From: Desulforhopalus sp.
GTDB taxonomy: Bacteria; Desulfobacterota; Desulfobulbia; Desulfobulbales; Desulfocapsaceae
NCBI GenBank assembly: GCA_030247675.1
Contig: JAOTRX010000004.1
Span: forward strand, 114,910-178,909
Length of the DNA: 64,000 bases
Direction: 5' to 3'
Position 1 is the first letter of the stretch; each line of letters opens with the position of its first letter. The notes below the pieces were generated by a model, which had not been told where the DNA came from, made no database searches, and worked only from the letters and a program-made list of their open reading frames with translations. The translations under genes were made by a program, and so were the position numbers. Of this stretch, positions 2,870-47,917 are shown in pieces.

Positions 2870-3000
2870 ACACTGATTACCATCACGAAAGTTGGGTAGC
2901 ATGGGTGCTCATATCAACGACGTGATACAGCATCTTTTTTATATCGATGGTGCCGGATCAACCGGTACACAAGAACATCCAATTCTTTGGAGGAGGAACC

Positions 3001-4161: not shown

Positions 4162-4192
4162 TTTTCCGCTTCATAGTACCAGTTGAACCTCA

Positions 4193-4218
4193 AGCGGCGG
4201 GAGGACATCCCCGCCGCT
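4193..4218 (+). terminator. Intercistronic hairpin after dctP
   Basis: AGCGGCGGG...CCCGCCGCT stem followed by CTTCCC; may stabilise or attenuate the mRNA. Confidence 0.45.
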
Positions 4219-4257
4219 CTTCCCTGAACACCCTTGCACGAAAAAAGGACGGACCTT

Positions 4258-4755
4258 ATGGAAACTCTTTCCCGGGCCATAGATGCCCTCAACGAAAAGG
4301 TTGGGCTCTACAGCTCCTACCTGGTTTTGCCGCTGATCGGTGCGGTCATCTACGAGGTCTTTATGCGCTATGTCTTTAACGCGCCGACCTCCTGGGGTTT
4401 TGAGATGACCACCTTTCTCTACGGCATGCATTTTATGTTGGGCCTGGGCGACGCCCTGCGGACCAACAACCATGTGCAGATCGATATCTTCGAATCGAAG
4501 CTGCCGAATAAAAAACGGGCGATTCTACGGATCATTACCGGCATCTGCCTCTTTATTCCGGCCATCGGCTTTATGACCTTTGGGGCAATCAAGTACGCCA
4601 TCACCTCCTGGGGGATGCTCGAACACGCCTCATCGTCCTGGGGGCCAGCCATCTATCCGTATAAAACGGTCATGGCCATCGGTTTTGTTCTGTTATTTTT
4701 GGCAGGGATTTCGAAGTTGCTGCAAGACTTCCGCACTCTGCGAACCGCCAACTAA
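4258..4755 (+). CDS. dctQ: TRAP transporter small permease
   Basis: Four hydrophobic segments, YEVFMRYVFNAPTSW and HVQIDIF motifs; lies between dctP and dctM. Confidence 0.9.
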   Translation: METLSRAIDALNEKVGLYSSYLVLPLIGAVIYEVFMRYVFNAPTSWGFEMTTFLYGMHFMLGLGDALRTNNHVQIDIFESKLPNKKRAILRIITGICLFIPAIGFMTFGAIKYAITSWGMLEHASSSWGPAIYPYKTVMAIGFVLLFLAGISKLLQDFRTLRTAN

Positions 4756-4778
4756 CCACCCGCTAGGAGATTACCATC

Positions 4779-6122
4779 ATGGGTCCAGAAGTCTTACCAA
4801 TCTTAATGTTCGTTGTCCTGATGGTGGCGATCGCCCTCGGCCACCCTCTGGCGGTGACCCTGGCGGCCGTGGCCACCCTCTTCGGTCTGATCGACAACGG
4901 TTTCAATGTCCTTGGCCTTATCGACCTTTTTACCAACAATAACTGGGGTAACTTCCTCAACTATACCCTGGTGTCGATCCCGCTGTTTATCTTTATGGCC
5001 CAGGTCCTTGACCGCGCCAAGGTCTCGGAAGAGCTCTTCGAGGCCCTGTATATTATCCTCGGTGGCCTGAAAGGCGGCCTCGGCATCGCCATCATCGTCG
5101 TCTCGACGGTCTTTGCCGCCACCACCGGTATCGTCGGTGCCTCGGTTGTCGCCATGAGTCTTATGGCCGCCCCGACCCTGTTGAAGAAAGGATATCACAA
5201 AGGATTGTCGGCCGGTATCATTACCTCCTCCGGGACGCTTGGCATCCTCATTCCGCCAAGCATCATGCTGGTTGTTTATGCCGGTCTTACCGGCCAGAAA
5301 GAGACCTCGGTCGGCAACCTCTTTGCCGCAGCCATCATTCCCGGTCTGATCCTCTCTGGCCTGTATATTACCTATGTGGCGATTCGCTGCGCCGTGAGGC
5401 CGCAGGACGGCCCGCCGATCCCCAAGGATGAGCGTACCGCCACCATTGGCCAGAAATGTGTAATGTTCGTCAAGAGCCTGGTACCGCCCTTCGGCCTGAT
5501 CCTGGCGGTCATGGGTACCATCCTGGCAGGCGTTGCCACCCCGACCGAGGCCGCGGCCCTTGGCGCCACCGGCGCGATGATCCTGGCCCTCTTTAAACGT
5601 ACCTTTACCTGGGAGATGATCAAGGGCTCGTGTATCTCAACAGCCCGGACCACCGCCATGGTATTGGCGCTGTTTATCGGCGGCAAGGTGTTCAGCGTGG
5701 TCTTCCTGTCCATGGGCGGCGGCGATGCGGTTGCCGATGTCATGCTCGGCAACAACCTCAGCCCGATCATGGTTCTGATCCTTATGAACCTAGTGGTCTT
5801 TATCCTCGGCGCCTTTATTGACTGGGCGGCAATCCTTCTCGTTACCGTGCCGATCTTCACCCCGATCGCCATGGAATTGGGTTTTGATCCGCTGTGGTTC
5901 GCCATGATCATCTGCGTTAACCTGCAGACCTCGTTCTTGACCCCGCCCTTTGGTTACTCGCTGTTCTACTTTAAGGGAGCATCTCCTCCCGACTATTCAA
6001 TGGGCGATGTCTATAAGGGTATCATTCCCTTTATCTGTCTGCAGATCATCGGCATCATATCCATCTGTATCTGGCCGGAACTGGTTACCTATCTGCCGTC
6101 GATATTCTTCGGCGATAAATAA
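4779..6122 (+). CDS. dctM: TRAP transporter large permease
   Basis: Very hydrophobic 447 aa; SIPLFIFM, GTLGILIPPSIMLVVY, TPTEAAA, SFLTPPFG motifs. Confidence 0.95.
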   Translation: MGPEVLPILMFVVLMVAIALGHPLAVTLAAVATLFGLIDNGFNVLGLIDLFTNNNWGNFLNYTLVSIPLFIFMAQVLDRAKVSEELFEALYIILGGLKGGLGIAIIVVSTVFAATTGIVGASVVAMSLMAAPTLLKKGYHKGLSAGIITSSGTLGILIPPSIMLVVYAGLTGQKETSVGNLFAAAIIPGLILSGLYITYVAIRCAVRPQDGPPIPKDERTATIGQKCVMFVKSLVPPFGLILAVMGTILAGVATPTEAAALGATGAMILALFKRTFTWEMIKGSCISTARTTAMVLALFIGGKVFSVVFLSMGGGDAVADVMLGNNLSPIMVLILMNLVVFILGAFIDWAAILLVTVPIFTPIAMELGFDPLWFAMIICVNLQTSFLTPPFGYSLFYFKGASPPDYSMGDVYKGIIPFICLQIIGIISICIWPELVTYLPSIFFGDK

Positions 6123-6157
6123 TCGGCTAATAATTTGAGATCGAAAGGAGATCAAAG

Positions 6158-6661
6158 ATGCTACCAGCAATAAAAACCATTCTGTATGCAACAGGCCTTG
6201 GTCAGGGCGCGCCGTACATCTTCCGTTACGCCTTGGCCCTTGCCCGCCAGCATCAGGCAAGTATCGTTGTCGTCCATGCCATGGAGCCGCTGACGACCTT
6301 CGGCCAGAGCCTTGTCGAACAGTATATTGACCATGATGCCTCGGCGGAGATGCACAGCAAGGCGCGCGACAGCGTCAAGGCCAACATCCAAAAGCGCATA
6401 GAGGCACTTTGTAGCCAGGAATGCCAGGGGGCGGAATGCGCCAATCTGGTCAGTTCCATCCGGGTGGTTGAGGGCTATCCCGCCCAGGTCATCATGGATG
6501 TTGCCCAGGCCTGCTCGGCCGACATGATCGTCATGGGGGCGCATCGCCATACCATGGTCGGCGAGACCTTTCTCGGCAGCACCACCCGCAAGGTCTTGCA
6601 CAGCGCCACACCACCTGTCTTCGTGGTAAAAGTACCAAAAGGATATTTTGAAAAACTCTAA
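6158..6661 (+). CDS. Universal stress protein (TRAP-associated UspA family)
   Basis: IKTILYATGL start, IVVVHA, ADMIVMGAH, FLGSTTRKVL. Confidence 0.9.
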   Translation: MLPAIKTILYATGLGQGAPYIFRYALALARQHQASIVVVHAMEPLTTFGQSLVEQYIDHDASAEMHSKARDSVKANIQKRIEALCSQECQGAECANLVSSIRVVEGYPAQVIMDVAQACSADMIVMGAHRHTMVGETFLGSTTRKVLHSATPPVFVVKVPKGYFEKL

Positions 6662-6852
6662 CAGCTTGGTGCGGTTTCCCGAATGACCGCGGGGCCGCAC
6701 ATCCTCCTCCCTCGCCGGAGTCCCGCAAACCATCCCCCTCTGTTTGGTGACCGGATTTCGGTGAGGGTACTTTCTTGAATGTCGCCTTATTATTAACCTG
6801 CAGCAACACCCGTAACGCAGTTGTAAAGATTCCACCTTCCAAGGAGAAAAAC

Positions 6853-8241
6853 GTGAAACCAAAACAAGCAGCCGCCCTTGCAGGCGCGTTCTCCGGTATT
6901 GTCGGCGCCGACAATGTCATGATCAGTGAGAATGATCGGTATGCCTATTCCTACGATGCGGCCGTTCTTGACTCGGTCATGCCGGGCATTATCGTACGAC
7001 CAACCAGCAGTGAAGCCCTTGGCCGGGTGGTGAAACTCTGTAACGATAATGGCCTGCCGCTGACCGTCCGTGGTGCCGGAACCAATCTTTCGGGGGGTAC
7101 CATCCCCGAGTTGGGCGGGGTGGTTGTCCTGACCAATGGTTTGACACGGATCCTTGAGATCAATGAGCAAGACCTGTACGCCATAGTCGAACCTGGGGTA
7201 ATCACCGCCACCTTTGCCCAGGAAGTTGCGAAGCTCGGTCTTTTCTATCCTCCCGATCCCGGCAGCCAAACGGTGTCGACTATTGGCGGCAATGTCGCCG
7301 AGAACGCCGGCGGACTGCGTGGCCTGAAGTACGGGGTCACCAAGGACTATGTCATGGGCATGGACTTCTGGGACGTTGAAGGAAAGCTTATTAAATCCGG
7401 CTCCCGCACCGTCAAGGCGGTGACCGGTTATAACCTGCATGGCCTGATGGTCGCCTCGGAGGGGACGCTCGGCGTCTATGACAAGATCATCCTTAAATTG
7501 ATTCCGCCGCCGCGGGCCGCCCGCTCAATGATGGCGGTCTTCGACTCGATCACCGCCGCCTCGGAGACGGTGGCCGCCATCATCGCCGCCAAGATCGTCC
7601 CGGCGACCCTGGAGATGATGGACAACTTCACCATCCGCACCGTCGATAACTTCCGCAAGGCCGGATTGCCGGTCGATGCCGCGGCGCTGCTGCTCATCGA
7701 GGTGGACGGCCATCCCAGCCAGGTGGCCGACGAAGCCGCCCAGGTCGAGGAGATCTGCAAAAAGCACAAGGCCCGCGAACTGAAGGTGGCAAGCGATGCG
7801 GCCGAACGCGCTACCATCTGGCAGGCCAGACGCGACGCCCTGCCGGCCCTGGCTAAGCTGAAACCGACCTGCGTCCTTGAGGACGCCACGGTGCCGCGCT
7901 CAAAGATCCCGGCGATGATTGAGGCCCTGGGTGAGATCAGCAAGAAATTTGACCTGACCATCGGCACCTTCGGCCATGCCGGCGACGGCAACCTGCATCC
8001 GACCATCCTCACCGACAAGCGCAACAAAGAAGAGTGGCACCGCGTTGAAAAGGCGATCGAGGAGATCTTTGACCGGGCCCTTGCCCTTGGCGGCACCCTG
8101 TCCGGCGAGCATGGCATCGGTCTTGCCAAATCGCGCTTCCTGGTGAAAGAGCTCGGCCAAGCTACGCTTGATTACAGTGCCCGGATGAAGGCGGCCCTTG
8201 ATCCGAAGAACATCCTCAATCCCAAGAAAATGGCGGGGTGA
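6853..8241 (+). CDS. FAD-linked oxidase subunit (GlcD-like; probable D-lactate dehydrogenase flavoprotein)
   Basis: RGAGTNLSGG, FYPPDPGS, STIGGNVAENAGG, HAGDGNLHP, SGEHGIG; GTG start after AAGGAG. Confidence 0.9.
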   Translation: MKPKQAAALAGAFSGIVGADNVMISENDRYAYSYDAAVLDSVMPGIIVRPTSSEALGRVVKLCNDNGLPLTVRGAGTNLSGGTIPELGGVVVLTNGLTRILEINEQDLYAIVEPGVITATFAQEVAKLGLFYPPDPGSQTVSTIGGNVAENAGGLRGLKYGVTKDYVMGMDFWDVEGKLIKSGSRTVKAVTGYNLHGLMVASEGTLGVYDKIILKLIPPPRAARSMMAVFDSITAASETVAAIIAAKIVPATLEMMDNFTIRTVDNFRKAGLPVDAAALLLIEVDGHPSQVADEAAQVEEICKKHKARELKVASDAAERATIWQARRDALPALAKLKPTCVLEDATVPRSKIPAMIEALGEISKKFDLTIGTFGHAGDGNLHPTILTDKRNKEEWHRVEKAIEEIFDRALALGGTLSGEHGIGLAKSRFLVKELGQATLDYSARMKAALDPKNILNPKKMAG

Positions 8242-8246
8242 AGAAT

Positions 8247-9575
8247 ATGGCGGATATTCAAAAATTAGCAGAGATGCTGAAAAAGCTCGACGACCAACTG
8301 GTCAACTGCATGCGCTGCGGGATGTGCCAGGCGGTCTGCCCCCTTTTTCAACAGACCGGCAGGGAAACCGATGTCACCCGCGGTAAACTGGCCCTGCTCG
8401 ACGGACTTGCCCAGCAGATCCTCAAGAACCCGCAGGACGTCAACGACATCCTCAACCGCTGCCTGCTCTGCGGCACCTGCCAGGTGAACTGCCCGAGCGG
8501 CGTACAGATCATCGATATCTTTCTTGAGGCCCGGGCGATTATGACCGGCTATTTCGGCCTGTCACCGGTAAAGAAGGCGATATTTCGGGGGATGCTCTCC
8601 AATCCGTCGCTGTTCAATGCCCTGACCTCCATCGGCTCGAAATTTCAGGGAATCTTTACCAAAAAGGTTGACGATCTCCTGGGTTCCTCCTGCGCCCGCT
8701 TTAATGCCCCGATCGTTGCTGACCGGCATTTCAACAGCCTGGCGACGACACCGCTACGGAAGATCTTTCCCAAGCTCGACACCCCGGCCGGCAGCAGCGG
8801 CCTGCGCGTCGCCTTCTTTCCCGGCTGCGTCGTCGATAAGATGTACCCGCAGGTGGGGGAGGCGACCATCAAGGTTCTTAAAAGAAAAGGGGTCGGCATC
8901 TTTCTGCCGCCGGGTCAGGCCTGCTGCGGCATTCCGGTTTTGACCAGCGGTGACCGCTCGACCTTTAACAACTTGATTGACATGAACCTCAAACTCTTTG
9001 CCGGTATGGACTTCGACTACCTGGTGACGCCCTGCGCTTCCTGCACCGCTACCATCAAGGAGTTGTGGCCGACCCTTTATGGCGGCAGCAAGGAGAATCT
9101 GCCGGATATCGTTGCACTGGGCAAGAAGACACTTGATATCACCCAGTTCCTGGCAGAGCACTGCCCTGTCGACAGCCTTCAGCCGATCGGCACCCAAGGT
9201 GATGCCATCACCTATCACGACCCCTGCCACCTGAAGAATTCCCTCGGTGTTACCAGTCAGCCGCGGACCTTGATCAAGGCCACCGGCAGGACATTTACGG
9301 AAATGACCGAGGCGGGAACCTGTTGCGGCTGTGGCGGTAGTTTCAACGTGGTGCACTACGAACTGTCAAAGAAGATCGGCAACCGCAAGGCGGACAATAT
9401 TATCGCCTCCGGGGCCTCGACCGTGGCCACTAGTTGCCCGGCCTGCATGATGCAGATGACCGACATGCTGTCGCGCCGGGACAAGGGTATCAAGGTCAAA
9501 CATGTAGTGGAACTGTATGCCGACAGTCTCGGCGATGACAGCGGCCCCCGGGCCCTGCAAGCACCTGAAAAGTAA
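8247..9575 (+). CDS. Fe-S/CCG-domain subunit (GlcF-like; D-lactate dehydrogenase Fe-S subunit)
   Basis: Two CxxCxxCxxxCP clusters and two CCG domains (CCGIP; YHDPCH...CCGCGG...SCPAC). Confidence 0.9.
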   Translation: MADIQKLAEMLKKLDDQLVNCMRCGMCQAVCPLFQQTGRETDVTRGKLALLDGLAQQILKNPQDVNDILNRCLLCGTCQVNCPSGVQIIDIFLEARAIMTGYFGLSPVKKAIFRGMLSNPSLFNALTSIGSKFQGIFTKKVDDLLGSSCARFNAPIVADRHFNSLATTPLRKIFPKLDTPAGSSGLRVAFFPGCVVDKMYPQVGEATIKVLKRKGVGIFLPPGQACCGIPVLTSGDRSTFNNLIDMNLKLFAGMDFDYLVTPCASCTATIKELWPTLYGGSKENLPDIVALGKKTLDITQFLAEHCPVDSLQPIGTQGDAITYHDPCHLKNSLGVTSQPRTLIKATGRTFTEMTEAGTCCGCGGSFNVVHYELSKKIGNRKADNIIASGASTVATSCPACMMQMTDMLSRRDKGIKVKHVVELYADSLGDDSGPRALQAPEK

Positions 9576-9625
9576 TGAAACGGCCTAGCCTAGGCAAATG
9601 GCAAGGCTCGGATATGGAGATAATT

Positions 9626-10273
9626 ATGGCCAACACAACTGTGATACAGGGCGAATCGGACCTTCTTTGTGCCCGGTTCACCGATAAGGCGAAGGCGGTC
9701 TCAGCCACCGTTCATGCAATCAAGAGTTTTGATGAAGCGGTGGCTTATGCCGTCAATCTCTGCGGCACCCAGGGGGCCTGCCGGATAGCCATCTCCGGGT
9801 GTGAGGAACAGCTGTCTCCTCCCGCCGATGCCCTCTGTCATTTGAAGCACGAAAAGATCGTCGTTGCCCCGGGCCTGGATCCGGAACACTCCGCGCTCCT
9901 TCAGGCGGCCTGTGCCGAGGGCGGTTTTGCCTATCTCCAGTCGGGGATGCGTGCTCACCTGAGTGGTGTCGATATCGGCTTCACGGTGGCCGATCTCGGT
10001 ATCGCCGAGACCGGTACCCTGGTCATCAATTGCCCGGGCGAAGATCTGCGTTTGGCAACGATGATCTGTGAATACCACGTCTGCGTTGTTCGTCGTTCGG
10101 CAATCGTTGTCGACGCCTTCGCCGCCGAACAGCAAATGCTGAAACAAATGCGCAAGACCCCGAATTATATGGCTTTCATCACCGGCGCCAGCCGGACTGC
10201 CGATATCGAAAGGGTCCTGGCGCTGGGAGTCCACGGACCCTTGGAACTCCATATTCTTCTGCTGGAGGATTGA
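9626..10273 (+). CDS. LUD-domain lactate utilisation protein (LutC/LldG-like)
   Basis: GIAETGTLVI and FITGASRTADIERVLALGVHGPLELHI motifs. Confidence 0.9.
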   Translation: MANTTVIQGESDLLCARFTDKAKAVSATVHAIKSFDEAVAYAVNLCGTQGACRIAISGCEEQLSPPADALCHLKHEKIVVAPGLDPEHSALLQAACAEGGFAYLQSGMRAHLSGVDIGFTVADLGIAETGTLVINCPGEDLRLATMICEYHVCVVRRSAIVVDAFAAEQQMLKQMRKTPNYMAFITGASRTADIERVLALGVHGPLELHILLLED

Positions 10274-10275
10274 TC

Positions 10276-12441
10276 ATGCAGAACGCCAAAGATCTCAAAG
10301 AATACCGAAAGGATATGCAGGAGGCCCTGGATAACACCTTTCTCCGCAAGACGCTTGACACCTTTGCCGTCGCCTATAGGGCAGGCAGGGCCAGGGCCTT
10401 TGCCGAATTCGACGTCAACCAGCTGGTGGCCGATGTTGCCTGCGCCAAGGACAGCGTTTTGCCGCGGCTAAACGAATTGTATCTGGAATTTAAAAAAAAT
10501 GCCGAGAACGCCGGGGTGAAGGTCCATTTCGCCAAGGATGCCGATGAGGCCAATGCCCTGATCGCCAAGATCGCCGCGGATACCGGCTCAAAGAAGATCG
10601 TCAAATCGAAGTCGATGACCGCCGAGGAGACCCTTCTCAACCACGCTCTGGAAGACCACGGCCTGGAGGTGATCGAGACCGATCTCGGCGAATGGATCAT
10701 CCAGCTCCGTCATGAAGGGCCGTCGCATATGGTCATGCCGGCCATTCACCTGTCGCGCTTCCAGGTCGGCGACCTGTTCAGCGATGTCACCGGCGCCAAG
10801 CAGGAGCCGGACATCGAAAAGCTGGTCAAGGTGGCGAGAAGGGAGCTGCGCGGCAAATTTGTTGAGGCCGATATGGGCATCACCGGCGCCAATTTTGCCA
10901 TTGCCGAGACCGGGACCATCGGCCTTGTCACCAACGAGGGCAATGCCCGGCTGGTGACGACCCTGCCGCGGGTGCATGTCGCCCTGATGGGTATCGACAA
11001 GCTGGTGCCGAGCCTCAGCGACGCCCTGAAGATCCTCAAGGTCCTGCCGCGCAACGCCACCGGCCAGAATATCACCTCCTATGTCACCTGGATCACCGGT
11101 GCCAATGAGTGCGGCTCGGCGGCCGACAAGAAGAAGGAAATCCATTTTGTCGTCCTCGATAACGGCCGCCTGGAAATGGCCAAAGACCCGCTGTTTTCCC
11201 AGGTCTTCCGCTGCGTACGCTGCGGCGCCTGCGCCAATGTCTGCCCGGTTTACCGCATGGTCGGCGGCCATAAGATGGGGCATATCTATATCGGCGCTAT
11301 CGGCCTGATCCTCACCTATTTCTTCCATGGTGCGGATAAGGCGAAAAATCTCGTACAGAACTGTATCAACTGCGAGGCCTGCAAGGATATCTGCGCCGGT
11401 GGCATCGACCTGCCGCGTCTTATCAAACAGGTGCATGTGCGCATCCAGGACAGTGAAGGGCATCCTTTGCCCAGTCTGCTGCTCGGGATGGTTATGAAAA
11501 ACCGTAAACTCTTCCACACCCTGCTGCGCACCGCCAAATGGGCGCAGAAGCCGGTGGCGGGGGATGACGGCTTTATGCGCCACCTGCCGATGATGTTTTT
11601 CAAGGAGCACGATTTCAAGGCCTTGCCGACGGTTGCTGAAAAGGCCTTCCGTGACCGCTGGCCGGACCTGCCGCATGGCCCGGCAAATCCCCGCCTGCGG
11701 GTTGCCCTGTTCTCCGGCTGTGTTCAGGATTTTGTTTATCCCGAGCAGATGGAGGCGGCGGCCCGGCTGTTTGCCGACCATCAGGTGGGGCTGTTGTTTC
11801 CCATGACCCAGTCGTGCTGCGGGCTGCCCCTGCAGATGATGGGCGAGGCGAAGACCTCCCGCGACGTGGCTCTGCAGAATCTCCGTGCCTTTGAAGCGGA
11901 GAATGCCGACTATATTGTCACCCTCTGTGCCTCCTGCGCCTCGCACCTCAAGCATAACTATCCGGTGTTGCTGGCGGATGATCCAAAACTTACCGAGAAG
12001 GTCCTGGCCTTTACCGCCAAGGTCATCGATTTCTCGTCGTTTGCCCACGATGTCCTTGGTTTGAAGGCGGAAGACTTTGCCGGAGACGGCAAGAAAGCGA
12101 CCTTCCATTCCCCTTGTCATCTCTGCCGGGGCCTCGGTGTCCATGATGCGCCGCGTAACCTGATCCGCTCCGCCGGTCTTGATTACCAGGAGGCCGACGA
12201 GTCGGAGGTCTGCTGCGGTTTTGGCGGCACCTTCTCGGCCAAGTTCCCGGAAATCTCCGCCCAGCTCCTCGGCAAAAAGCTCGACAACGTCGAAAAGACC
12301 GGCGCCGAGATCCTCCTCAGCGATTGCCCCGGCTGCATCATGCAGCTGCGTGGCGGCCTGAAGAAACGGGGCTCGACGATCGTTGTCCAGCATACCGCCG
12401 AGGCCCTGGCGAATAGAAGAAAAGGTGGGAGCAGGGGGTAA
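10276..12441 (+). CDS. L-lactate dehydrogenase LutB/LldH-like (LUD + 4Fe-4S + CCG fusion)
   Basis: VKSKSMTAEE, ETDLGEWIIQL, PSHMVMPAIH, CVRCGACANVCPVY, then two CCG domains. Confidence 0.9.
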   Translation: MQNAKDLKEYRKDMQEALDNTFLRKTLDTFAVAYRAGRARAFAEFDVNQLVADVACAKDSVLPRLNELYLEFKKNAENAGVKVHFAKDADEANALIAKIAADTGSKKIVKSKSMTAEETLLNHALEDHGLEVIETDLGEWIIQLRHEGPSHMVMPAIHLSRFQVGDLFSDVTGAKQEPDIEKLVKVARRELRGKFVEADMGITGANFAIAETGTIGLVTNEGNARLVTTLPRVHVALMGIDKLVPSLSDALKILKVLPRNATGQNITSYVTWITGANECGSAADKKKEIHFVVLDNGRLEMAKDPLFSQVFRCVRCGACANVCPVYRMVGGHKMGHIYIGAIGLILTYFFHGADKAKNLVQNCINCEACKDICAGGIDLPRLIKQVHVRIQDSEGHPLPSLLLGMVMKNRKLFHTLLRTAKWAQKPVAGDDGFMRHLPMMFFKEHDFKALPTVAEKAFRDRWPDLPHGPANPRLRVALFSGCVQDFVYPEQMEAAARLFADHQVGLLFPMTQSCCGLPLQMMGEAKTSRDVALQNLRAFEAENADYIVTLCASCASHLKHNYPVLLADDPKLTEKVLAFTAKVIDFSSFAHDVLGLKAEDFAGDGKKATFHSPCHLCRGLGVHDAPRNLIRSAGLDYQEADESEVCCGFGGTFSAKFPEISAQLLGKKLDNVEKTGAEILLSDCPGCIMQLRGGLKKRGSTIVVQHTAEALANRRKGGSRG

Positions 12442-12462
12442 CTCCCGGCCGGGGCTGAATGG

Positions 12463-12492
12463 GGACGGGTCCGGCGGTTGCCGGGCCCGTCC
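12463..12492 (+). terminator. GC-rich hairpin after the lactate operon
   Basis: GGACGGGTCCGGC-GGTT-GCCGGGCCCGTCC near-perfect 13-bp stem 20 bp after the stop codon. Confidence 0.55.
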
Positions 12493-12665
12493 GGCGCTTT
12501 GCAGATGTTCCGTCCCTGCGGGTGGCGTATGCCGGCCCTGCAAAATTGTCTTGGGTTTTGCTATTCAGCCACTATAATGGGGCGAAATGGAAGCGGGCGT
12601 GGCGGCGGAAGGCCATAGTCCACCGCCCATCAATGCATCCCCTCACCAGGCGGCGGCCACACGCA

Positions 12666-13502
12666 ATGATGACAGCAGATAGCCAGGAACTTTTCGAAAA
12701 AATCACTAAAAGCGTTGAATACATCACCGCCAGAACGACCATCCGCCCGACCATTGGCATTATCCTCGGTACAGGCCTCGGACGGCTGGCGGAGTCCATT
12801 GTTGTCGATGCGGAACTACCCTACGGCGAGATCCCCCATTTCGTTACCGCTACGGTTGAGCACCATGCCGGTAAATTGCTCCTCGGCAAGTTGGGAGGGG
12901 CGGAGGTGGTCTGCATGTCCGGGCGGTTTCATCTCTACGAAGGCCATTCCCTGGCCGAAGTGACCTTTCCGGTGCGGGTCATGAAGGCCCTCGGCTGCAC
13001 CAAGCTGTTTATCTCCAATGTCGCGGGAGGGCTGAATGAGTATTACCGGCGCGGCGATATCATGATCATCGACGACCATATCAACCTTCTTGGGCAGAAT
13101 CCCCTGGTCGGGCCGAATGACCCGCGCCTTGGCGAGCGCTGGCCGGACATGTTCGAACCGTACAGCCGCGACTTGCAGAAAAAGGCGATCGCCATCGCCC
13201 AGAAGCTCAATTTGCCGATCCGCAAAAAAGGCATCTATGCCTGTCTCTGCGGGCCCTGTCTGGAAACCAGGGCGGAGTACCGGATGCTGCGGACTTTAGG
13301 CGCCGATGCGGTCGGTATGTCCACTGTTCCGGAGGCGATTGTCGCCGTCCACGCCGGGCTGCAGGTCTTTGCCTGTTCGATCATCACCGATCTCTGCACC
13401 CCGGAGACCCTGCGCCCGGTGGATATCGCCGAGATCATCGCCACCGCCGGCGAGGCCGAGCCCAAGCTCGTCCAGCTCTTTACCGAGATGGCCAGCTGCT
13501 GA
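12666..13502 (+). CDS. punA: Purine-nucleoside phosphorylase (trimeric PNP family)
   Basis: IGIILGTGLG, GRFHLYEG, SNVAGGLN, GPCLETRAE, DAVGMSTVPEA, SIITD. Confidence 0.9.
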   Translation: MMTADSQELFEKITKSVEYITARTTIRPTIGIILGTGLGRLAESIVVDAELPYGEIPHFVTATVEHHAGKLLLGKLGGAEVVCMSGRFHLYEGHSLAEVTFPVRVMKALGCTKLFISNVAGGLNEYYRRGDIMIIDDHINLLGQNPLVGPNDPRLGERWPDMFEPYSRDLQKKAIAIAQKLNLPIRKKGIYACLCGPCLETRAEYRMLRTLGADAVGMSTVPEAIVAVHAGLQVFACSIITDLCTPETLRPVDIAEIIATAGEAEPKLVQLFTEMASC

Positions 13503-13600: not shown

Positions 13601-14449
13601 TCAACGCTTCCACAGGTCCAGGGCCAGCTGGTAGACCTGCGACCGCGGCAGTCCAAGATCGGAAGACAGCTTGCGGCTGGCGTCTTTTAAGGACAGTTCG
13701 GAGTTGTCGCGGTACCACAGGATCAGTTCTTCGACGGTCTGCCCCTGTACCTCTTCTTTTCCGCCGGGGCAGATAATGACGACGAACTCGCCGCGATTGC
13801 GGCCTTCCTTGCTCTTGGCCAGGAGGTCGGCAAGAGTCCCCGATTGCAGATCCTCAAAACTCTTGGTCAGTTCCCGCGCCCAAAAGGCCTGCCGTTCACC
13901 GAGAATCTCCAGAGCGTCGGCCAGGAAGTCATCGATACGGTGCGGCGACTCGTAAAACACCACCGGATATTCGCAGGCGGCAACGGCCGACAATGCCTTG
14001 CGGCGCTGTCCCGATTTGGCCGGAAGAAAGCCGAGAAAGAGAAAGCCGGTGGAGGTGATCCCCGAGCCGGAAAGGGCGGTAGTCAGCGCCGAGGCCCCCG
14101 GCAGCGGCACGACGGTCAGGCCAAGGTCATGGGCCCGGCGGACGACAACCGCGCCCGGGTCGGAGATGGCCGGGGTCCCGGCATCGCTGACCAGGGCGAC
14201 ATTTTTCCCCTCCTGCAGACGAAGCAAAATCTCCTCACTACGCTCCGCCTCCTTTTCCCGGTAATAGCTGATCAGCGGCGTCGCGATGCCGAAGTGGTTG
14301 AGGAGATTGCGGGTGTGGCGGGTGTCCTCGGCGGCGATGACATCGACTTCCTTGAGAATCCGCAGAGCGCGCAGGGTGATATCTTCAAGGTTGCCGATGG
14401 GGGTGGGGACGATATACAAGGTCCCGTGGACGGTCCTAGTTTCGGTCAT
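13601..14449 (-). CDS. rsmI: 16S rRNA (cytidine1402-2'-O)-methyltransferase
   Basis: LYIVPTPIGNLEDITLRAL, AAEDTRHT, VSDAGTPAISDPG, FYESPHR, ARELTK. Confidence 0.95.
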   Translation of the reverse strand: MTETRTVHGTLYIVPTPIGNLEDITLRALRILKEVDVIAAEDTRHTRNLLNHFGIATPLISYYREKEAERSEEILLRLQEGKNVALVSDAGTPAISDPGAVVVRRAHDLGLTVVPLPGASALTTALSGSGITSTGFLFLGFLPAKSGQRRKALSAVAACEYPVVFYESPHRIDDFLADALEILGERQAFWARELTKSFEDLQSGTLADLLAKSKEGRNRGEFVVIICPGGKEEVQGQTVEELILWYRDNSELSLKDASRKLSSDLGLPRSQVYQLALDLWKR

Positions 14450-14547
14450 GCGTGATCCGTGGGGAAAGGGGTGACAGGGGAGTAATTTACCAAGCATTGA
14501 TTGCCGCTACACTATGCTCAACTCCCCGGCAAATTGCATCTGCTTTC

Positions 14548-14592
14548 TTGACTTTTCTCGGCGAGACCATTATATGAATATATGATCATATA
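14548..14592 (+). promoter_or_regulatory. Sigma-70-like promoter overlapped by an ArsR/SmtB-type operator
   Basis: TTGACT at 14548, -10-like TATATG 17 bp downstream; inverted repeat TATATGA-N8-TCATATA (14571-14592) with a TGAA-N6-ATCA core. Confidence 0.65.
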
Positions 14593-14609
14593 TTAAGATG
14601 GAGACAAGG

Positions 14610-14957
14610 ATGAACAATGATCGCTGCAGTTGCCGGATTGTCCACCAGGACAAGGTGGACTTGGCGCGAACCCAGGGCCTGGAACCAACGAAAATTGAAG
14701 GAATCAGCAACCTGTTCAAGGCCTGTAGCGACCCCGGACGGCTGCAGATACTCCATGCCCTGCAGCAGCAGGAGATGTGTGTGTGCGATCTTGCGGCACT
14801 TTTAGGGATCTCGGAGTCGGCGGTGAGCCATCAATTGCGCCTCCTCAGAACCATGGGCCTGGTTGCCAACAGACGGGAAGGGGTCGTCCTCTATTACCGC
14901 CTGGTGGACGGGCGATTTGCACAACTCATAAGTTTGGCAGGTGAGCTGCTGACCTGA
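14610..14957 (+). CDS. ArsR/SmtB family metalloregulator (CadC/ZiaR-like)
   Basis: N-terminal CSCRIVH, DPGRLQIL, EMCVCDLA (alpha3 site), SAVSHQLRLLR HTH; C-terminal DGRF lacks the alpha5 D/H ligands. Confidence 0.9.
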   Translation: MNNDRCSCRIVHQDKVDLARTQGLEPTKIEGISNLFKACSDPGRLQILHALQQQEMCVCDLAALLGISESAVSHQLRLLRTMGLVANRREGVVLYYRLVDGRFAQLISLAGELLT

Positions 14958-15018
14958 TCGTACCTGTTTTGGGCGCTTGTGCCAAGACCGGGCCAGCGGG
15001 TGAAAAATAGGTGTTGCC

Positions 15019-16212
15019 ATGTTTGAAATACTAGAAAAAATTAGCGTGGAGTGGTGGCATATCCTTGTCGACAGCTCCTTTTATGTCCTCCTCGGGATTA
15101 CCATCGCCGGGCTGCTCAGAGCGACCCTCAACCCGGACACGGTTGCCAAACACCTGGGGCGCGGCCGCTATATGTCGGTGATCAAAGCGGCCCTCCTTGG
15201 CGTACCTTTGCCCCTCTGATCGTGTGGTGTGCTGCCGGCGGCAGCATCCTTGAAAAAGCAGGGGGCCAATAAAGGTGCAACCGCAGCCTTTCTGGTCTCG
15301 ACACCGGAATCGGGTGTCGATTCCATTGCCATAACCTACGCCCTCCTTGATCCGATTATGACCGTGGTGCGGCCGGTGGCGGCACTGGTGTCGGGGATTG
15401 TCGCGGGACTTGTCGAAAATATCTGGTTTTGGCAAAAGGATGCGGACAAGGCCCCGGCCGGGGACTGCAGATGCCCGGAAGACAAGAGCTGTGGCGGCGA
15501 TTGTTCAGGTGAAAATCCTGCTAACCACCACACCCTGGCGGAAAAGTTGCTGGAAGGCCTGCGCTTTGGCTATAAGGAGGTTTGGGGCGATATTGCCGGC
15601 TGGTTCTTTGTCGGCCTGTTCGCAGCTGCCCTGATAACCGCCCTGGTGCCCGGCGACCTGATCACTACCTTTCTCGGTGGCGGGGTCAGTTCGATGTTGA
15701 TCATGCTGGTGGTGGGTATTCCTCTGTATATCTGTGCATCGGCCTCGACGCCGGTGGCCGCCGCCCTCATTATGAAAGGGGTGAGTCCGGGGGCGGCCCT
15801 GGTGTTTCTGCTGGTCGGCCCGGCCACCAATGTTACCTCGATTTTTGTCCTCAACGGCATTCTCGGCAAGAGGGGGACGGCGATGTATCTGGCCATCCTG
15901 TCAGGCTGTGCCGTGATCTTTGGTCTTGGTCTTGACGCACTGTACCTGGCCTTGGGTATCTCCGTGCAGGCGTCCCTTGGCGAGGCATCCGAGCTTTTGC
16001 CGGAGTGGATGAAACTCGCCGCCGTGGCGGTGCTCCTGGGGATATCGGTACAACCACTGACGGCCGCCCTGCGTAAGAGGTTTGCCCGGAAGGCCGCACC
16101 GAGCGTGTTCTTCAGTGATTTTCCGGCAATACATGACCACATCGGGAAGCCCGGGCAGAACCCCGTGGCGGTGCATGAAAAAGGCCATTGCGGTTGTGGT
16201 TGCGGCAGTTGA
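15019..16212 (+). CDS. DUF318/ArsP (SO_0444-like) metal permease with in-frame TGA at 15217-15219, candidate selenocysteine
   Basis: ORFs 15019-15219 and 15229-16212 are in the same frame; joined they read GVPLPL*SCGVLPAA, where the family motif is PLCSCG; also STPESGVDS, GIPLYICASASTP, FLLVGPATN. Confidence 0.85.
15226..15249 (+). ncRNA. Candidate bacterial SECIS element
   Basis: GGTG-TGCTGCC-GGC-GGCAGCA-TCC: perfect 7-bp stem extendable by a G-U and two G-C pairs; G-starting loop begins 17 nt after the TGA. Confidence 0.7.
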
Positions 16213-16376
16213 GGCAGCAGAACTCTGCGGCAAGGGAATGCGGGAAAAGCGGCGCAAAAATTTGCAAAATCGCCATGGAAGGGGTAGTTTGAGGGTGCCT
16301 GGCCCAAACAACTAAGACAACGATGACAAGTACCGTTGTGCCACGTCCAACCATGAACTGACCGCCCAAAGAACGC

Positions 16377-17306
16377 ATGGCGCCCCTGCCCAGAATCCTT
16401 ACCGCCCTTTTCATCGTTTGCCTTGCCTGGGGCCTATCCTCGTGCCGCGAACGCGAGGAGAGGGTCAAGGTTTCCCTTAATAAACGCCAGGATATTACCT
16501 TCCGGCAGCAACAACCCGCCATAACCTACGCCTGTCTTCCTCAGTACGCCCATACCGAATCCTTTCAACGCCACCACCTGCTGGTGGAATATCTTACCGA
16601 GGAGACCGGCCTCGCCATCCGCCAGGTGTTTCCCGAGACCTTTGACGATCACATAAAGATGTTCGGGCAGGGCAAGATCGACATCTCATTTTCTAATCCA
16701 TTCGTTTATGTGCGGCTGGCCAACCGCTTTGGTGCCAAGGCCATGGCCCGGATCATCGAGGAGGACGGCCGCGCCGAGTTCCGCGGTCAGATCATAGCCC
16801 GCAAGGATAACAAGGCGGTGCAAACCCTCAAAGACTGCCGGGGTAAATCATGGGTGGCGGTTGATCCGTCATCGGCCGGCGGCTATCTCTTTGCCCTTGG
16901 ACACTTTATCGATAAGGGCTTGAATCTGGGTGACTTCAAGGAGGTGGTCTTTGCCGGCGGCCGGCAGGAAAACGTTGTTCTCGGGGTATATGCCGGCCTG
17001 TACGATATCGGCTCGATACGGGAAGGTTCCTTGGCGGTGGTAAAGGACAAGATCGATGTCAGCCAGATTAAGGTGATCGAAAACTCCAGATGGTATCCGG
17101 GCTGGGTTTACGCCAGCAGCCCGAGGCTTTCTCCGGAGGTGGTTGAGATAATCAGGACTGCCCTGTTGCGCCTCGACTACCAACAAAACCCCCGGCACAA
17201 GGCGATTCTCGATGCGGCAAAGTGTATCGGCCTGGTTTCTTCCGATGACCAGGACTTTGAACCTGTTCGTGACCTGAGCAGAAAAGCGGGGCTTTATCTT
17301 GATTGA
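16377..17306 (+). CDS. PhnD-like substrate-binding (lipo)protein
   Basis: Signal with LSSC lipobox-like end; FRGQIIARKD, VDPSSAGGYL, QENVVLGV, YPGWVYA. Confidence 0.8.
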   Translation: MAPLPRILTALFIVCLAWGLSSCREREERVKVSLNKRQDITFRQQQPAITYACLPQYAHTESFQRHHLLVEYLTEETGLAIRQVFPETFDDHIKMFGQGKIDISFSNPFVYVRLANRFGAKAMARIIEEDGRAEFRGQIIARKDNKAVQTLKDCRGKSWVAVDPSSAGGYLFALGHFIDKGLNLGDFKEVVFAGGRQENVVLGVYAGLYDIGSIREGSLAVVKDKIDVSQIKVIENSRWYPGWVYASSPRLSPEVVEIIRTALLRLDYQQNPRHKAILDAAKCIGLVSSDDQDFEPVRDLSRKAGLYLD

Positions 17307-19188
17307 ACGCGTGCCCATACCAAAGATTCTCCATCGCCTGCGCCTCAGGACGAAAATCACTTTGGGCGTCACCTTCATGCTGGTATTCTGCGGCATCGGC
17401 ATTGGCCTGATCCTCTCCAACATGTCTTCCTCTGCCCTCATCGAGGAGGGGAAAAAGCGCGGCATGGCCTTGACCTCGGGGCTTGCCCTGCGCCTGGCCG
17501 AACCGATCCTGGCCATGGATTTCCTGCAGATGAAGAACTTCATCGACAATGTCCATAGCCAGTATGACGACGTTATCTATGTTTTTCTGACCGACGCCAG
17601 CGGTAACATCCTCGCCCATACCTTTAACGGCGGCTTTCCCACCGATCTGCTTGGCGTAAATCTCGACAGCCGTGGTGCACAACCCTTACTCCTCGCCACC
17701 GAGGAAAGACTGATCTATGATTTCAACGCCCGGGTCGTCCTCGGCGACAGCAATCTGGGCTCGGTGCGGTTGGGGCTGTCGCGGAGCGATATCGACATCC
17801 AGATTCGCAGCCAGCGGCTGACCAGTCTGGTGGCGACGCTTGGCGTCGTTGGCCTCGGGGTGGTCCTGGCCCTGTGGTTTGCCCGTACAGTTACCTCAAG
17901 GCTTATCCGCCTGCGGGAGTCGGTGGAGGAGATTGTCCGGGGGAATCTCGATGCCCATGCGACACTAGCCGGCGATAAAAACTTCTTTGATGATGAGCTC
18001 CAGGACCTAGCCGAGGCCTTTGACACCATGGCGATGACCGTTAAAAACCATATCGGCGAGCTCATCGAGCGGGAAAAAACCATCGTCAGGCAGCAGGGAT
18101 TGCTCAAGACCATCATGAGCGTCACCCCCGATTTTATCACCCTGCAGGACAGAAATCTGGTCTATACTTTTGCCGGCAAGGCCTTTTGTGATGATCTTGA
18201 TCTGCCGGAGGCGGCGGTGGTCGGCAAAACCGATTACCACATCTTTCCCGAACAGATTGCGGCGATCAATACCGAAGAGGGCAGGGAAATCCTTGCCTCG
18301 GGACGTACCCTCGCCAAGGAAATCTGCCTCAGGCGGTCTGATGAGAAGAGGTGGTTTCATGTTATTAAGATCCCGGTGTACGACCAGGACGGCAGCATCA
18401 TAGGGGTTCTCTCCACTGCCAGGGATATCTCCATGTTGAAGAAAATCCAGGAGCAGCTGGTCCAGTCCCAGAAGATGGAGGATCTCGGGCGCCTGGCCGG
18501 GGGGGTGGCCCATGAAATCAATACCCCGCTTGGCATAATTCTTGGGTACAGCCAGATTCTCGTGGAGGATATAAAGGACAAAGAACTCCTCGAAGGCATG
18601 AAAATCATCGAAAAACAAAGTCAGGTTTGTCGTAAGATTGTCGCCGATTTGCTGGGCTTTGCCAGAAAATCCAGGTCGGTCAGCGAAGCGGTGGATATTG
18701 TCGAATCCATCCGTACCGTTGCCAATCTGGTTGAACACACCTTTGCCATGAATGACATACAGGTGGTCATCGACACGGACAATACTCTTCCGCCACTGAC
18801 CGGTGACGACGAAAAGCTCAAACAGGTCTGGCTGAACCTCCTCAATAATGCCGCCGATGCCATCGACGCGGGTGGCATTATCACCGTCCGGGCGAGGCTG
18901 GGCGCGGAAGGGAAAACGATTGTGGTATGCGTCGCCGATACCGGCAAAGGTGTGGAGAACGCCCATATCACCAAGGTGTTTGATCCTTTCTTCACCACCA
19001 AGGAGGTTGGTAAGGGCACGGGCTTGGGGCTGTCCGTGTCCTTTGGTATCATCAAGGAGCACGGCGGGACCATTGCCGTGTTCAGCCCGTGCCCGGCGGA
19101 ATACCAGCCGGCGGATTTTTCCCGGCTGGAGCACTGCGGGCCAGGGACGGTATTTATCGTCGAGCTACCAGTGCCATTATTCAATTGA
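17299..19188 (+). CDS. Membrane sensor histidine kinase (HAMP-PAS-HisKA-HATPase)
   Basis: Two TM segments, HAMP (DELQDLAEAFDTM), PAS, AGGVAHEINTPL H-box, QVWLNLLNNA, DTGKG, DPFFTTKEVGKGTGLGL. Confidence 0.95.
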   Translation: MIERVPIPKILHRLRLRTKITLGVTFMLVFCGIGIGLILSNMSSSALIEEGKKRGMALTSGLALRLAEPILAMDFLQMKNFIDNVHSQYDDVIYVFLTDASGNILAHTFNGGFPTDLLGVNLDSRGAQPLLLATEERLIYDFNARVVLGDSNLGSVRLGLSRSDIDIQIRSQRLTSLVATLGVVGLGVVLALWFARTVTSRLIRLRESVEEIVRGNLDAHATLAGDKNFFDDELQDLAEAFDTMAMTVKNHIGELIEREKTIVRQQGLLKTIMSVTPDFITLQDRNLVYTFAGKAFCDDLDLPEAAVVGKTDYHIFPEQIAAINTEEGREILASGRTLAKEICLRRSDEKRWFHVIKIPVYDQDGSIIGVLSTARDISMLKKIQEQLVQSQKMEDLGRLAGGVAHEINTPLGIILGYSQILVEDIKDKELLEGMKIIEKQSQVCRKIVADLLGFARKSRSVSEAVDIVESIRTVANLVEHTFAMNDIQVVIDTDNTLPPLTGDDEKLKQVWLNLLNNAADAIDAGGIITVRARLGAEGKTIVVCVADTGKGVENAHITKVFDPFFTTKEVGKGTGLGLSVSFGIIKEHGGTIAVFSPCPAEYQPADFSRLEHCGPGTVFIVELPVPLFN

Positions 19189-19270: not shown

Positions 19271-20398
19271 ATGAGTAAACATATCGGGATATTGACGGCA
19301 GGTGGTGACAGTCCGGGATTGAACGCGGCGATTCGCGCCATCGGTAAGTCGGCGCTGACCGCCGGGATGGACGTAATTGGCTTTCGCGATGGCTTTCGCG
19401 GGCTTATGGAAAACAGAACGATGCGTCTTGAGCTGGAAACCCTTTCCTCTATTCTTACCAGGGGCGGGACCATCCTCGGCACCAGCCGCGACAAGCCGCA
19501 TAAGATGCCGGTCGGCAGCGAGATCATGGATATGACCCAGGTAATCTGCGACAACTACCGGCACCATAACCTCGATGCGCTGATCTGTATCGGCGGCGGC
19601 GGTACCCAGAAAAACGCCTACCGTCTGGCGCAGAAGGGTCTGAATATCCTGACCCTGCCCAAGACCATCGATAATGATGTGGCGATGACCGATATCACCT
19701 TCGGTTTTGACACCGCCATGGAGATCGCCACCGAGGCCATCGACCGGCTGCACTCCACCGCCCATAGCCACCACCGGATTATTGTCGTCGAGATCATGGG
19801 CCATAATGCCGGCTGGCTGGCCCTTGGCGCCGGCATTGCCGGAGGTGCCGATGTCATCCTCATCCCGGAGATTCCCTACGATCTGGAGGCGGTGACCGCA
19901 GCCATTCGCAAGAGAAAGCAGCGGGGCACCAACTTCAGTATTGTCGCCGTAGCCGAAGGGGCGCTATCTCAGGCTGATTACCAGCGCTACACCGGTCTGA
20001 AGACTGCCAAGTCCGAGGCCAAGGAAAAGGCCGACGCCAAGGCACTGAAGAAGATCGAGGAGGATCTCCTTGAGTTCACCACCCACCGCAGCAATCATAC
20101 CCTCAGGCTGTCCCAGGAGTTGGAAAAAATGACCGGCTTGGAGTCGCGGGTGACCATCCTCGGCCACTATCAGCGGGGCGGCACACCGTCGGCCGCCGAC
20201 CGGATGCTCGCCACCCGCCTGGGCAGTGCCTGCGTCGAGTGCATCGAGCGGGGTATCGGCGGGGTGATGATCGCCGCTGACCGCAACGGCACCAAGGCGG
20301 TGCCGCTGTCCGAGGTCGTCGGTAAAAAGAACCTGGTGCCCAAAGACCATCCAATGGTGCAGGCCGCTAGGAGGGTTGGCACCTGCATGGGCGATTGA
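19271..20398 (+). CDS. pfkA: 6-phosphofructokinase
   Basis: [56 protein letters not shown]. Confidence 0.92.
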
Positions 20399-20540
20399 CG
20401 GGTACCGAAAAGAATGGGAGAGAGCCTGCGGGGGATACGACAAGACGATTAATTGTTCTTTGACTCCAATAGCTACAAGAAGGGCGCCCGGATGGACTGA
20501 GAAGAGAGGATTCTTTTATTTTACTCTGACCCCAAAAAAT

Positions 20541-21122
20541 ATGAAGACTTACATCCAAATACTCCTGCTTTTTTTTGTTCTGTCAGCACAGGCCTCGGCA
20601 GAAATGTATACCTGGGTAGATGAAAACGGTAAAACTCAGTTTAGCAATACCATTCCGCCGCCTGGTACCAAGGCCGAAACGATAAAAGATGATACCAATA
20701 TAACTGCCAGCAGCAAACCGAGAGAAACAAGACCGAAGGAGAAAGACATTAGGCAAAGGTATGATCAATCCATCGCAACTATAGAGCGCAACCACCAAAA
20801 GGCTCTTGATAGAATTGAAAACGATCGAATTGAAGGTGAAAGACAAGAGTTGGCGGGGGAAAGAAGGTCCCTCGATTCCAAGAAAAAACGATGGCTTGAG
20901 CGATGTGAAAAAGAGACTGACGGATACGTTAATGAATCAGATTGCAGAGACCATGTAAATGAAAGGTTTGACGTAGTGTTTGGTATGATTTCCAGAACAC
21001 CGAAATATTATCTCGACCATCGCCATTCCATAGATGGTGAGACAGACAAGTTGTTAAAGGCATTCCTGAAGAAAAAACAATCAAAGAACAGGCATTCGCA
21101 TTTAATGCATAGTTCAAGATAA
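20541..21122 (+). CDS. Exported DUF4124-like protein
   Basis: Signal peptide then AEMYTWVDENGKTQFSNTIPP (DUF4124-type start); AT-richer than its neighbours. Confidence 0.7.
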   Translation: MKTYIQILLLFFVLSAQASAEMYTWVDENGKTQFSNTIPPPGTKAETIKDDTNITASSKPRETRPKEKDIRQRYDQSIATIERNHQKALDRIENDRIEGERQELAGERRSLDSKKKRWLERCEKETDGYVNESDCRDHVNERFDVVFGMISRTPKYYLDHRHSIDGETDKLLKAFLKKKQSKNRHSHLMHSSR

Positions 21123-46385: not shown

Positions 46386-46404
46386 AGCAGCCGAATTGGG
46401 CAAA

Positions 46405-47364: not shown

Positions 47365-47602
47365 GGTGATTGGGACAGGATGTTGGAATTGCTGGTCAGC
47401 TCCCGGTACCGTCTTCTCTACGGTCAAGAAATGCCGGGGCGGTTGATAATTCAGGGCGATACTACACCCGGTGAAGGAGAAAGCAAATAGATATTATCGA
47501 CAGGCGATTCGGGCAAAAGAGCGGTTATGGTGTTGGTCTCGCCAAGCCAAATTGCCGGGAAAAGAGTTGACTTTCTTGCCCGCTGCCTGTTTACTTGCCA
47601 TC

Positions 47603-47792: not shown

Positions 47793-47917
47793 TTTCGTCG
47801 CTTATCCCGTGGAAAGGATGCTGCAATCGATACGAGGACAACAGGGACTCCCCGGATCATCAATGGTGATTCGGGTTTTTTTATTCTCCGGATCACGAGC
47901 ACCAAGGAGGATTACCC

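Follow-up and report, generated by a model that had tools for sequence, protein, structure and literature searches.

The locus described here raises a simple question: does a TGA triplet inside an otherwise intact gene end that gene, or does it encode an amino acid? The gene lies on a stretch of 64,000 nt (hereafter called the window) from an uncultured wastewater bacterium assigned to Desulforhopalus sp. (family Desulfocapsaceae; NCBI GenBank assembly GCA_030247675.1, contig JAOTRX010000004.1, positions 114,910 to 178,909 of the forward strand). At 15019-16212 (+) a predicted metal efflux permease is encoded, and its frame is interrupted by one TGA. An original prediction, made from the letters of the window, had taken this permease for an integral-membrane selenoprotein. 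Our comparison with related loci supports that view, as the TGA alternates with Cys codons, a downstream hairpin is linked to the TGA, and purifying selection acts on the coding sequence. We thus consider 15019-16212 to be, very probably, a genuine member of the SO_0444 family of transporters in which UGA is decoded as selenocysteine (Sec). Proteins of this kind are already catalogued.

The frame at 15019-16212 (+) is a single open reading frame (ORF) that starts with ATG at 15019 and terminates with TGA at 16210-16212. The TGA at 15217-15219 is its sole in-frame interruption and, as originally claimed, splits an otherwise intact permease at the first Cys of a conserved motif. Read through, the gene yields a product of 397 amino acids with Sec at residue 67; residues 61-78 read GVPLPL-U-SCGVLPAAASL, and the expected Sec-containing peptide would be GVPLPL-U-SCGVLPAAASLK. 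Within it, the motif PLPL-U-SCG comprises residues 63-70, and the TGA takes the place of the first Cys in the C-S-C motif of the family. The second thiol of the resulting U-S-C, Cys69, is encoded by TGT at 15223-15225 (+), between the UGA and a GTG that gene callers take as a false start. The mechanical ORF listing of the window splits the gene into 66 amino acids (15019-15219) and 327 amino acids starting from GTG at 15229.

With U67 written as C for scoring, the read-through protein matches the NCBIfam model NF033936 ('SO_0444 family Cu/Zn efflux transporter') with 404.7 bits (E 3.4e-121, profile positions 2-349 of 351), the curated equivalog cut-off being 300 bits. It also matches PF03773 (ArsP_1, E 6.6e-45), so that the DUF318/ArsP label given initially is correct at the Pfam level, with NF033936 providing the sharper assignment. 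We rejected an identity with SaoE, as the protein reaches 174.7 bits on the SaoE model NF040736, under its curated cut-off of 325, and neither a SAO nor an ars gene neighbourhood is present.

A sequencing or assembly error as the source of the TGA was rejected as well. The whole stretch was found in two wastewater-metagenome sequencing runs, and the Logan contigs of these separate runs (word depth 134 and 11) are identical to positions 14600-16300 with 0 differences, although the comparison is one of assembled contigs, in which rare variants can be hidden. Hence the contigs of both runs carry TGA at the codon in question, and not TGC or TGT. When a third party called genes on one of these contigs (L081), the gene was again divided, here into 66 and 320 amino acids.

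Further insight came from the codon state among relatives. The 80 most similar loci were taken from representative genomes of other species, and their DNA was read at the codon aligned to Sec67. The motif could be aligned in 77 of them: TGA was found in 43 loci, TGT in 20 and TGC in 14, neither TAA nor TAG occurred, and in 3 the motif pattern was unmatched; since the loci were chosen by similarity to a Sec-form query, 43/80 overstates the frequency of Sec in the whole family. As the original prediction had implied, the TGA thus aligns with a conserved Cys, being kept as TGA in 43 loci from other species and replaced by TGT or TGC in 34. Together with the window this gives 44 TGA loci, among them cultured isolates, namely Desulfosediminicola flagellatus IMCC35005, Desulforhopalus sp. 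IMCC35007 and Desulfopila aestuarii DSM 18488. The window matches Desulfopila-like and Desulfobacterales/Desulfocapsaceae genomes best (70-72% identity), so that its source is a species of that group not sampled so far. At the protein level, the 18 closest database entries (65-85% identity) are all N-truncated to 324-330 amino acids and begin with V/M-LPAAASL, just past the U-S-C-G, while full-length Cys relatives in the same search share 56-66% identity. Judged from these alignments, an alternation restricted to TGA and Cys codons is the classic Sec/Cys pattern.

Purifying selection is seen before as well as after the UGA. For the 44 TGA loci, the mean ratio of nonsynonymous to synonymous differences (pN/pS) is 0.27 over the 52 codons before the UGA and 0.16 over the 65 codons after it, at a pS of 0.70-0.78, i.e., with synonymous sites near saturation. 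Not a single stop was detected in the 52 upstream codons of these loci. Consequently, both parts are kept as coding sequence, and so is the short segment between the TGA and the GTG: its Ser, Cys and Gly are kept in every locus with the motif while the third codon positions are free to vary, and the three codons are therefore translated.

Downstream of the UGA, folding gives a hairpin of the selenocysteine insertion sequence (SECIS) type at 15229-15247 (+), GUGCUGCC-GGC-GGCAGCAU, which is made of the codons for V71-L-P-A-A-A76. Its stem consists of 7 Watson-Crick pairs (15230-15236 with 15240-15246), extended to 8 by a G.U pair at 15229/15247, and its loop is GGC at 15237-15239. The perfect 7-bp stem and the loop starting with G agree with the earlier description, whereas the spacing of 17 nt reported there turned out to be the distance from the UGA to the loop; the stem starts after 10 nt. 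The minimal SECIS of Escherichia coli fdhF is a 17-nt stem-loop located 11 nt after the UGA. Both elements are stem-loops of the coding sequence just 3' of the UGA, the one in the window being a 17-nt hairpin at 10 nt. However, the latter has GGC as its loop (CGGCG if the top pair opens), lacks the bulged U and does not match an Rfam SECIS.

Taken alone, the hairpin is weak evidence, because the 86-nt fold has a z of only -1.75 and similar hairpins are found elsewhere in the window: a perfect 7-bp hairpin 5-25 nt downstream follows 1.7% of window positions and 11 of the 1122 TGA triplets. For the comparison among relatives, each locus was scored by its best stem without interruption that begins 6-21 nt past the codon, and a hairpin was called present at a score of at least 6. 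On this basis it is present in 41/44 TGA loci and in 7/34 Cys loci, and is thus far from equally common in Cys-encoding orthologues. The exact 17-mer TGCTGCCGGCGGCAGCA occurs in 25 of the 44 TGA loci and in none of the 34 Cys loci. In addition, third-position entropy over the six hairpin codons V-L-P-A-A-A is lower in TGA loci (0.27-1.19 bits) than in Cys loci (1.25-1.97 bits), while flanking four-fold sites show 1.5-1.9 bits in both groups alike. Variants of the first hairpin type retain pairing, as C>U and A>G both lead to U.G and a double change in one locus (L055) leads to a compensatory U-A; pairing is kept in 99.3% of cells over 34 loci. A different hairpin, YGCAGC-CGUGUC-GCUGCR, is found in a second TGA clade (L041, L046, L050, L054, L058, L061, L071 and L080), with a loop that starts 23 nt after the codon and a closing pair of C-G, U-A or U.G. 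A third arrangement is found in L048 and L049. A TGA kept in 43 species at the position of an essential Cys, together with a hairpin, is hard to explain without Sec decoding.

Which alternatives have to be considered? The one that survives best accepts the Sec-decoded gene and concerns its cargo: the true substrate may be softer than Cu or Zn, namely Cd, Pb, Hg, As(III) or an organoarsenical. We consider this less likely than the Cu/Zn assignment, yet it is a possibility to be taken seriously. In Shewanella oneidensis MR-1, SO_0444 mutants did not grow under ZnSO4 or CuCl2 stress and could be complemented (PMC3219624). The Shewanella regulator is the ZntR-like SO_0443 (PMC3219624), whereas the transporter of the window is preceded by a thiolate-type ArsR/SmtB regulator with a CVC and an N-terminal CSC. 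Furthermore, a family member of Nitratiruptor was induced by Cd as well as by Cu (PMC10092412), and the Pfam superfamily includes organoarsenical exporters. Finally, Se binds soft metals very tightly, a matter of general chemistry that has also been argued in the literature (bioRxiv 10.1101/2022.07.06.499078). However, the score of the protein lies above the equivalog cut-off for SO_0444 but below that for SaoE, and no ars genes apart from the arsR regulator were found near the transporter in the window neighbourhood.

The remaining alternatives dispense with Sec. According to the first of them, the UGA would be read through by near-cognate insertion of Trp or Cys, or because UGA is recoded, and the hairpin would be a by-product of the LPAAA codons. 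This is where the results that weigh against Sec decoding have to be faced, in addition to the sampling by similarity mentioned above. Covariation of the first hairpin type is not significant (5/8 pairs invariant, one compensatory change, 93/500 shuffles with at least the observed score), and neither is that of the second type; of the comparison among homologues that had been proposed initially, the conserved TGA/Cys pairs were thus found and significant covariation was not. The LPAAA peptide by itself favours a GCUGCC/GGCAGC hairpin, and the seven Cys loci with a hairpin are L044, L045, L064, L070, L078, L079 and, with the second type, L063 (3169-3222); these hairpins, located some 10 nt past the Cys codon, are possibly remnants of a reversion from Sec to Cys, or by-products of the LPAAA codons. 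The entropy of about 0 bits in the 'type A' subgroup is partly circular, as this subgroup was defined by its hairpin pattern, and the fair comparison is that of all TGA loci with the Cys loci. TGA loci do not fold more stably 3' of the codon than Cys loci do (mean energy -17.1 against -19.1 kcal/mol); overall folding energy does not separate the two groups and was dropped as a criterion. A scan of 15150-15350 against Rfam at E <= 10 delivered chance matches only and no SECIS family, and the sole RNA run found gave no coverage of the locus. The Sec machinery did not come to light either: ARAGORN detected no tRNA, and hence no selC, in the 64-kb window, tblastn with E. coli SelA, SelB and SelD (from NC_000913.3) gave no match in the window or the 81 loci, and no second selenoprotein gene turned up when the window was scanned for further in-frame TGAs.

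Nevertheless, we regard read-through without Sec as very improbable. TGA terminates both arsR and the transporter gene itself, and we therefore rejected a genome-wide reassignment of UGA. Moreover, the codon alternates solely with Cys codons, the synonymous sites of the hairpin are constrained in TGA loci only, and the family is curated as a selenoprotein family. For the presumed Sec decoding in the source organism, indirect support comes at the level of its lineage, which is rich in selenoproteins: 10 of 11 Deltaproteobacteria possess at least six selenoproteins, and Desulfotalea psychrophila has 12 (Zhang et al., 2006; PMC1794560). One further candidate emerged from the scan for in-frame TGAs, at 46405-46407 (-), where the end of a membrane-protein ORF (46405-47427) is followed by 322 open codons. 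In this region (45430-47427, -) the continuation consists of Arg/Pro-rich sequence in an alternative frame, and the next ORF (45345-46616), read in another frame, overlaps it; we rejected it as a selenoprotein.

Slightly less probable still is a split gene, in which the N-terminal 66 amino acids and a C-terminal protein restarted at GTG 15229 would assemble in the membrane. Every TGA relative does have a GTG or ATG at this position, and gene callers use it. However, that codon corresponds to the conserved Val/Met71 of the motif, which is present in the Cys forms too, and the GTG sits inside the hairpin stem. A restart would also leave S-C-G untranslated, including Cys69 of the most conserved motif, yet these amino acids are kept under free synonymous change. 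The least credible alternative, a Cys-type transporter inactivated by a nonsense mutation, is suggested by the two ORFs of 66 and 320 amino acids returned by generic gene callers and by the lack of detectable Sec machinery within the 64-kb window, but it is effectively refuted by the comparative data, in which TGA is kept in 43 other species and TAA or TAG never occurs, further stops or frameshifts are absent, pN/pS stays low on either side of the codon (0.27 before it, 0.16 after it) although synonymous sites are nearly saturated, synteny is conserved and the hairpin is specific to TGA loci.

Sec decoding of this gene fits to what is known about the family. Haft and Gwadz (2022; bioRxiv 10.1101/2022.07.06.499078) reported that the SO_0444 family includes selenoproteins, in which the CSC is occasionally changed to Sec-Ser-Cys (USC), as in WP_014809615.1 of Desulfomonile tiedjei and its closest homologues. 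USC members were included in the selenoprotein reference set of the Prokaryotic Genome Annotation Pipeline (PGAP) of NCBI, and apart from the SO_0444 family and a small MerT-related set of earlier examples, no transporter selenoproteins were validated for the NCBI reference data (bioRxiv 10.1101/2022.07.06.499078). In a 2026 review, the list of prokaryotic selenoproteins includes the entry 'SO_0444 family Cu/Zn efflux transporter, NF033936, UxC' (PMC13188914). Sec transporters of this family are therefore already catalogued, and the gene of the window adds a member from an uncultured wastewater bacterium. It shares with the published USC members the family model, the replacement of the first Cys of the motif by Sec, and anaerobic hosts of the former 'deltaproteobacteria'. 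In contrast to the published example from Desulfomonile, WP_014809615.1, which we compared by its description, it stems from a Desulfobulbales/Desulfocapsaceae clade. Within the sampled part of this clade, Sec predominates over Cys, the hairpin has at least two designs, and Cys forms are nested in the Sec clade. SO_0444 of S. oneidensis belongs to the same family and has the same predicted role, but contains Cys instead of Sec (PMC3219624); it is paired with the ZntR-like, MerR-type SO_0443, while an ArsR/SmtB-type regulator accompanies the gene of the window. SaoE (CD2367 family) and the ArsP organoarsenical exporters have the permease superfamily PF03773 (ArsP family of TCDB) and the C-S-C motif in common with it, and SaoE was reported without Sec members (bioRxiv 10.1101/2022.07.06.499078).

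The original prediction also held that annotation would report such a gene as a pseudogene or as two ORFs. This is true for generic gene callers, as seen from the 18 N-truncated entries and the split into 66 and 320 amino acids, whereas PGAP, according to the 2022 paper, has the family among its selenoprotein references. N-truncated entries of about 325 amino acids that lack the U-S-C motif comprise P0002-P0023, P0067, P0069, P0098, P0116 and locus L081, and some of them originate from metagenome-assembled genomes held by NCBI. Truncation at the UGA is a systematic mis-annotation by generic gene callers.

How might Sec contribute to metal transport? By hhalign, the first half of the protein is homologous to the second (probability 97.1%, E 5.7e-11, 120 columns), and the alignment places GVPLPL-[U/C]-SCGVLPAAA over GIPLYI-C-ATASTPVAA. 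In this alignment, Sec67 of the first repeat (GVPLPLU) is the counterpart of Cys239 of the second (GIPLYIC), whose codon at 15733-15735 (+) encodes a residue that is invariant in three alignments (A1, A3 and A4). Relatives with solved structures were not found, neither by phmmer against PDB sequences nor by Foldseek against PDB (best E 0.023, template modelling score 0.33). For the geometry we used the AlphaFold model of a Cys homologue with 65% identity (P0009; mean predicted local distance difference test score 84.2, predicted template modelling score 0.83). In this model, residue 67 starts the helix 68-80 after a break from helix 52-61, and residue 239 is located between helices 222-236 and 240-252. 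Two further segments are rich in potential ligands. Between the repeats lies a Cys/His-rich loop (D149 CRCPEDKSCGGDCSGENPANHH171; 15463-15531, +), which is non-helical in the P0009 model and of which C152, D155, C157, C158, C162, H170 and H171 are nearly invariant in our alignments; it is a probable cytoplasmic metal-binding loop. The protein ends with HCGCGCGS (16186-16209, +), and since a C-terminal CGCG-type ending recurs in many relatives, this is probably a metal-binding tail.

From these features the following scenario could be envisioned. Most likely, the hairpin at 15229-15247 recruits SelB with Sec-tRNA(Sec), and SelB bound to Sec-tRNA(Sec) decodes the UGA at 15217 as Sec. Where one membrane helix breaks off and the next begins, each half of the protein would then carry a (seleno)cysteine, namely Sec67, together with Cys69, in the first half and Cys239 in the second, a geometry that is deduced from the secondary structure of the model and from the repeat alignment. 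Sec67, Cys69 and Cys239 may make up a soft-metal site through which Cu, Zn or Cd ions would be exported, and Se in place of S would change the affinity or the exchange rate of that site. The loop 149-171 and the HCGCGCGS tail might serve as accessory metal-binding segments.

The gene neighbourhood gives a hint toward regulation. Directly upstream, at 14598-14957 (+), an ArsR/SmtB-family metalloregulator of 119 amino acids is encoded (NF033788, 95.8 bits at a cut-off of 55; PF01022), with a CVC in the region of the DNA-binding helix (EMCVCDL) and the N-terminal CSC. This arsR ends 61 nt before the ATG of the transporter on the same strand, no terminator-like site was found between the two genes, and the transporter is probably co-transcribed with it. 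A repeat search revealed an imperfect 14/14 inverted repeat at 14572-14599, with the perfect core TATATGA/TCATATA (14579-14592), which overlaps the arsR start codon and represents a candidate auto-regulatory ArsR/SmtB operator. The type of ArsR and the palindrome suggest a repression that is released by metal, such that the thiolate-type repressor, probably co-transcribed, would de-repress the transporter.

The arrangement is conserved. An arsR homologue is located directly upstream on the same strand in 59/78 loci, window included (33/44 TGA and 26/34 Cys loci), and in the Desulfocapsaceae-like clade rsmI follows beyond arsR on the other strand, as in the window (13601-14497, -). Because the synteny rsmI(-)/arsR/transporter is kept across the clade, the loci are, as far as gene order tells, positional orthologues. 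Further out, the window encodes a purine nucleoside phosphorylase (12459-13502) on one side, and a PhnD-like binding protein (16377-17306), a histidine kinase (17299-19188) and a phosphofructokinase (19271-20398) on the other.

Besides this region, the window contains other features. A cobalamin riboswitch is located at 47595-47802 (+) (Rfam RF00174, 114.7 bits, E 5e-28), and the ORF downstream of it (47918-48901) has a below-cut-off match to the sirohydrochlorin cobaltochelatase CbiK. Four ORFs, one of them of 960 amino acids, gave no NCBIfam match at the thresholds used (52480-53508, 53853-56735 and 56913-57959, +; 20376-21122, +). Genes at 2947-12441 (+) and 775-2172 (-) encode a tripartite ATP-independent periplasmic (TRAP) transporter (DctP/DctM-like), a GlcD-like flavoprotein, an Fe-S protein and the quinone-type L-lactate dehydrogenase LdhH (1096 bits), adjoined by a sigma-54 activator. 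By its gene content, this looks like a cluster for the utilisation of lactate or another hydroxy acid, as is typical of sulfate reducers.

From an evolutionary perspective, the distribution of the two codon states deserves attention. In a quick neighbour-joining distance tree of the read-through proteins, the window groups with the many TGA loci that share the first hairpin type, in one large clade that has Cys forms nested inside it (L014, L017, L027/L043 and L039). Elsewhere, among Cys forms, the TGA loci with the second and with the third hairpin type branch as clades of their own, and L076 is isolated. This topology tentatively suggests repeated switches between Cys and Sec. Because of the type-A clade with its nested Cys forms, the separate type-B clade, the type-C pair and the possible hairpin remnants in some Cys genes, one might speculate that the codon switched between Cys and Sec several times in sulfate reducers, each time with an own SECIS design built from the codons of the conserved segment downstream. 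We put this forward as a tentative idea that is more likely to fail than to hold.

Sec in transporters is uncommon. Since the family is already on a published list of prokaryotic selenoproteins, the discovery value of the gene as such is small. The additions made here are modest: Sec predominates among the sampled Desulfobulbales relatives, its hairpin comes in at least two designs, and Sec67 matches Cys239 of the second repeat, all of which may help in tests of Se at a metal-transport site. The gene is also of some practical value, as many public entries of the clade lose the metal-binding motif when generic gene callers stop at the UGA. If the codon did switch repeatedly, Se at a non-redox transport site would alter metal affinity or turnover in a way on which selection in sulfidic habitats can act, and metal efflux in these organisms would depend on the supply of selenium. 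The family would then offer a natural test bed for the use of Sec at a binding rather than a redox site.

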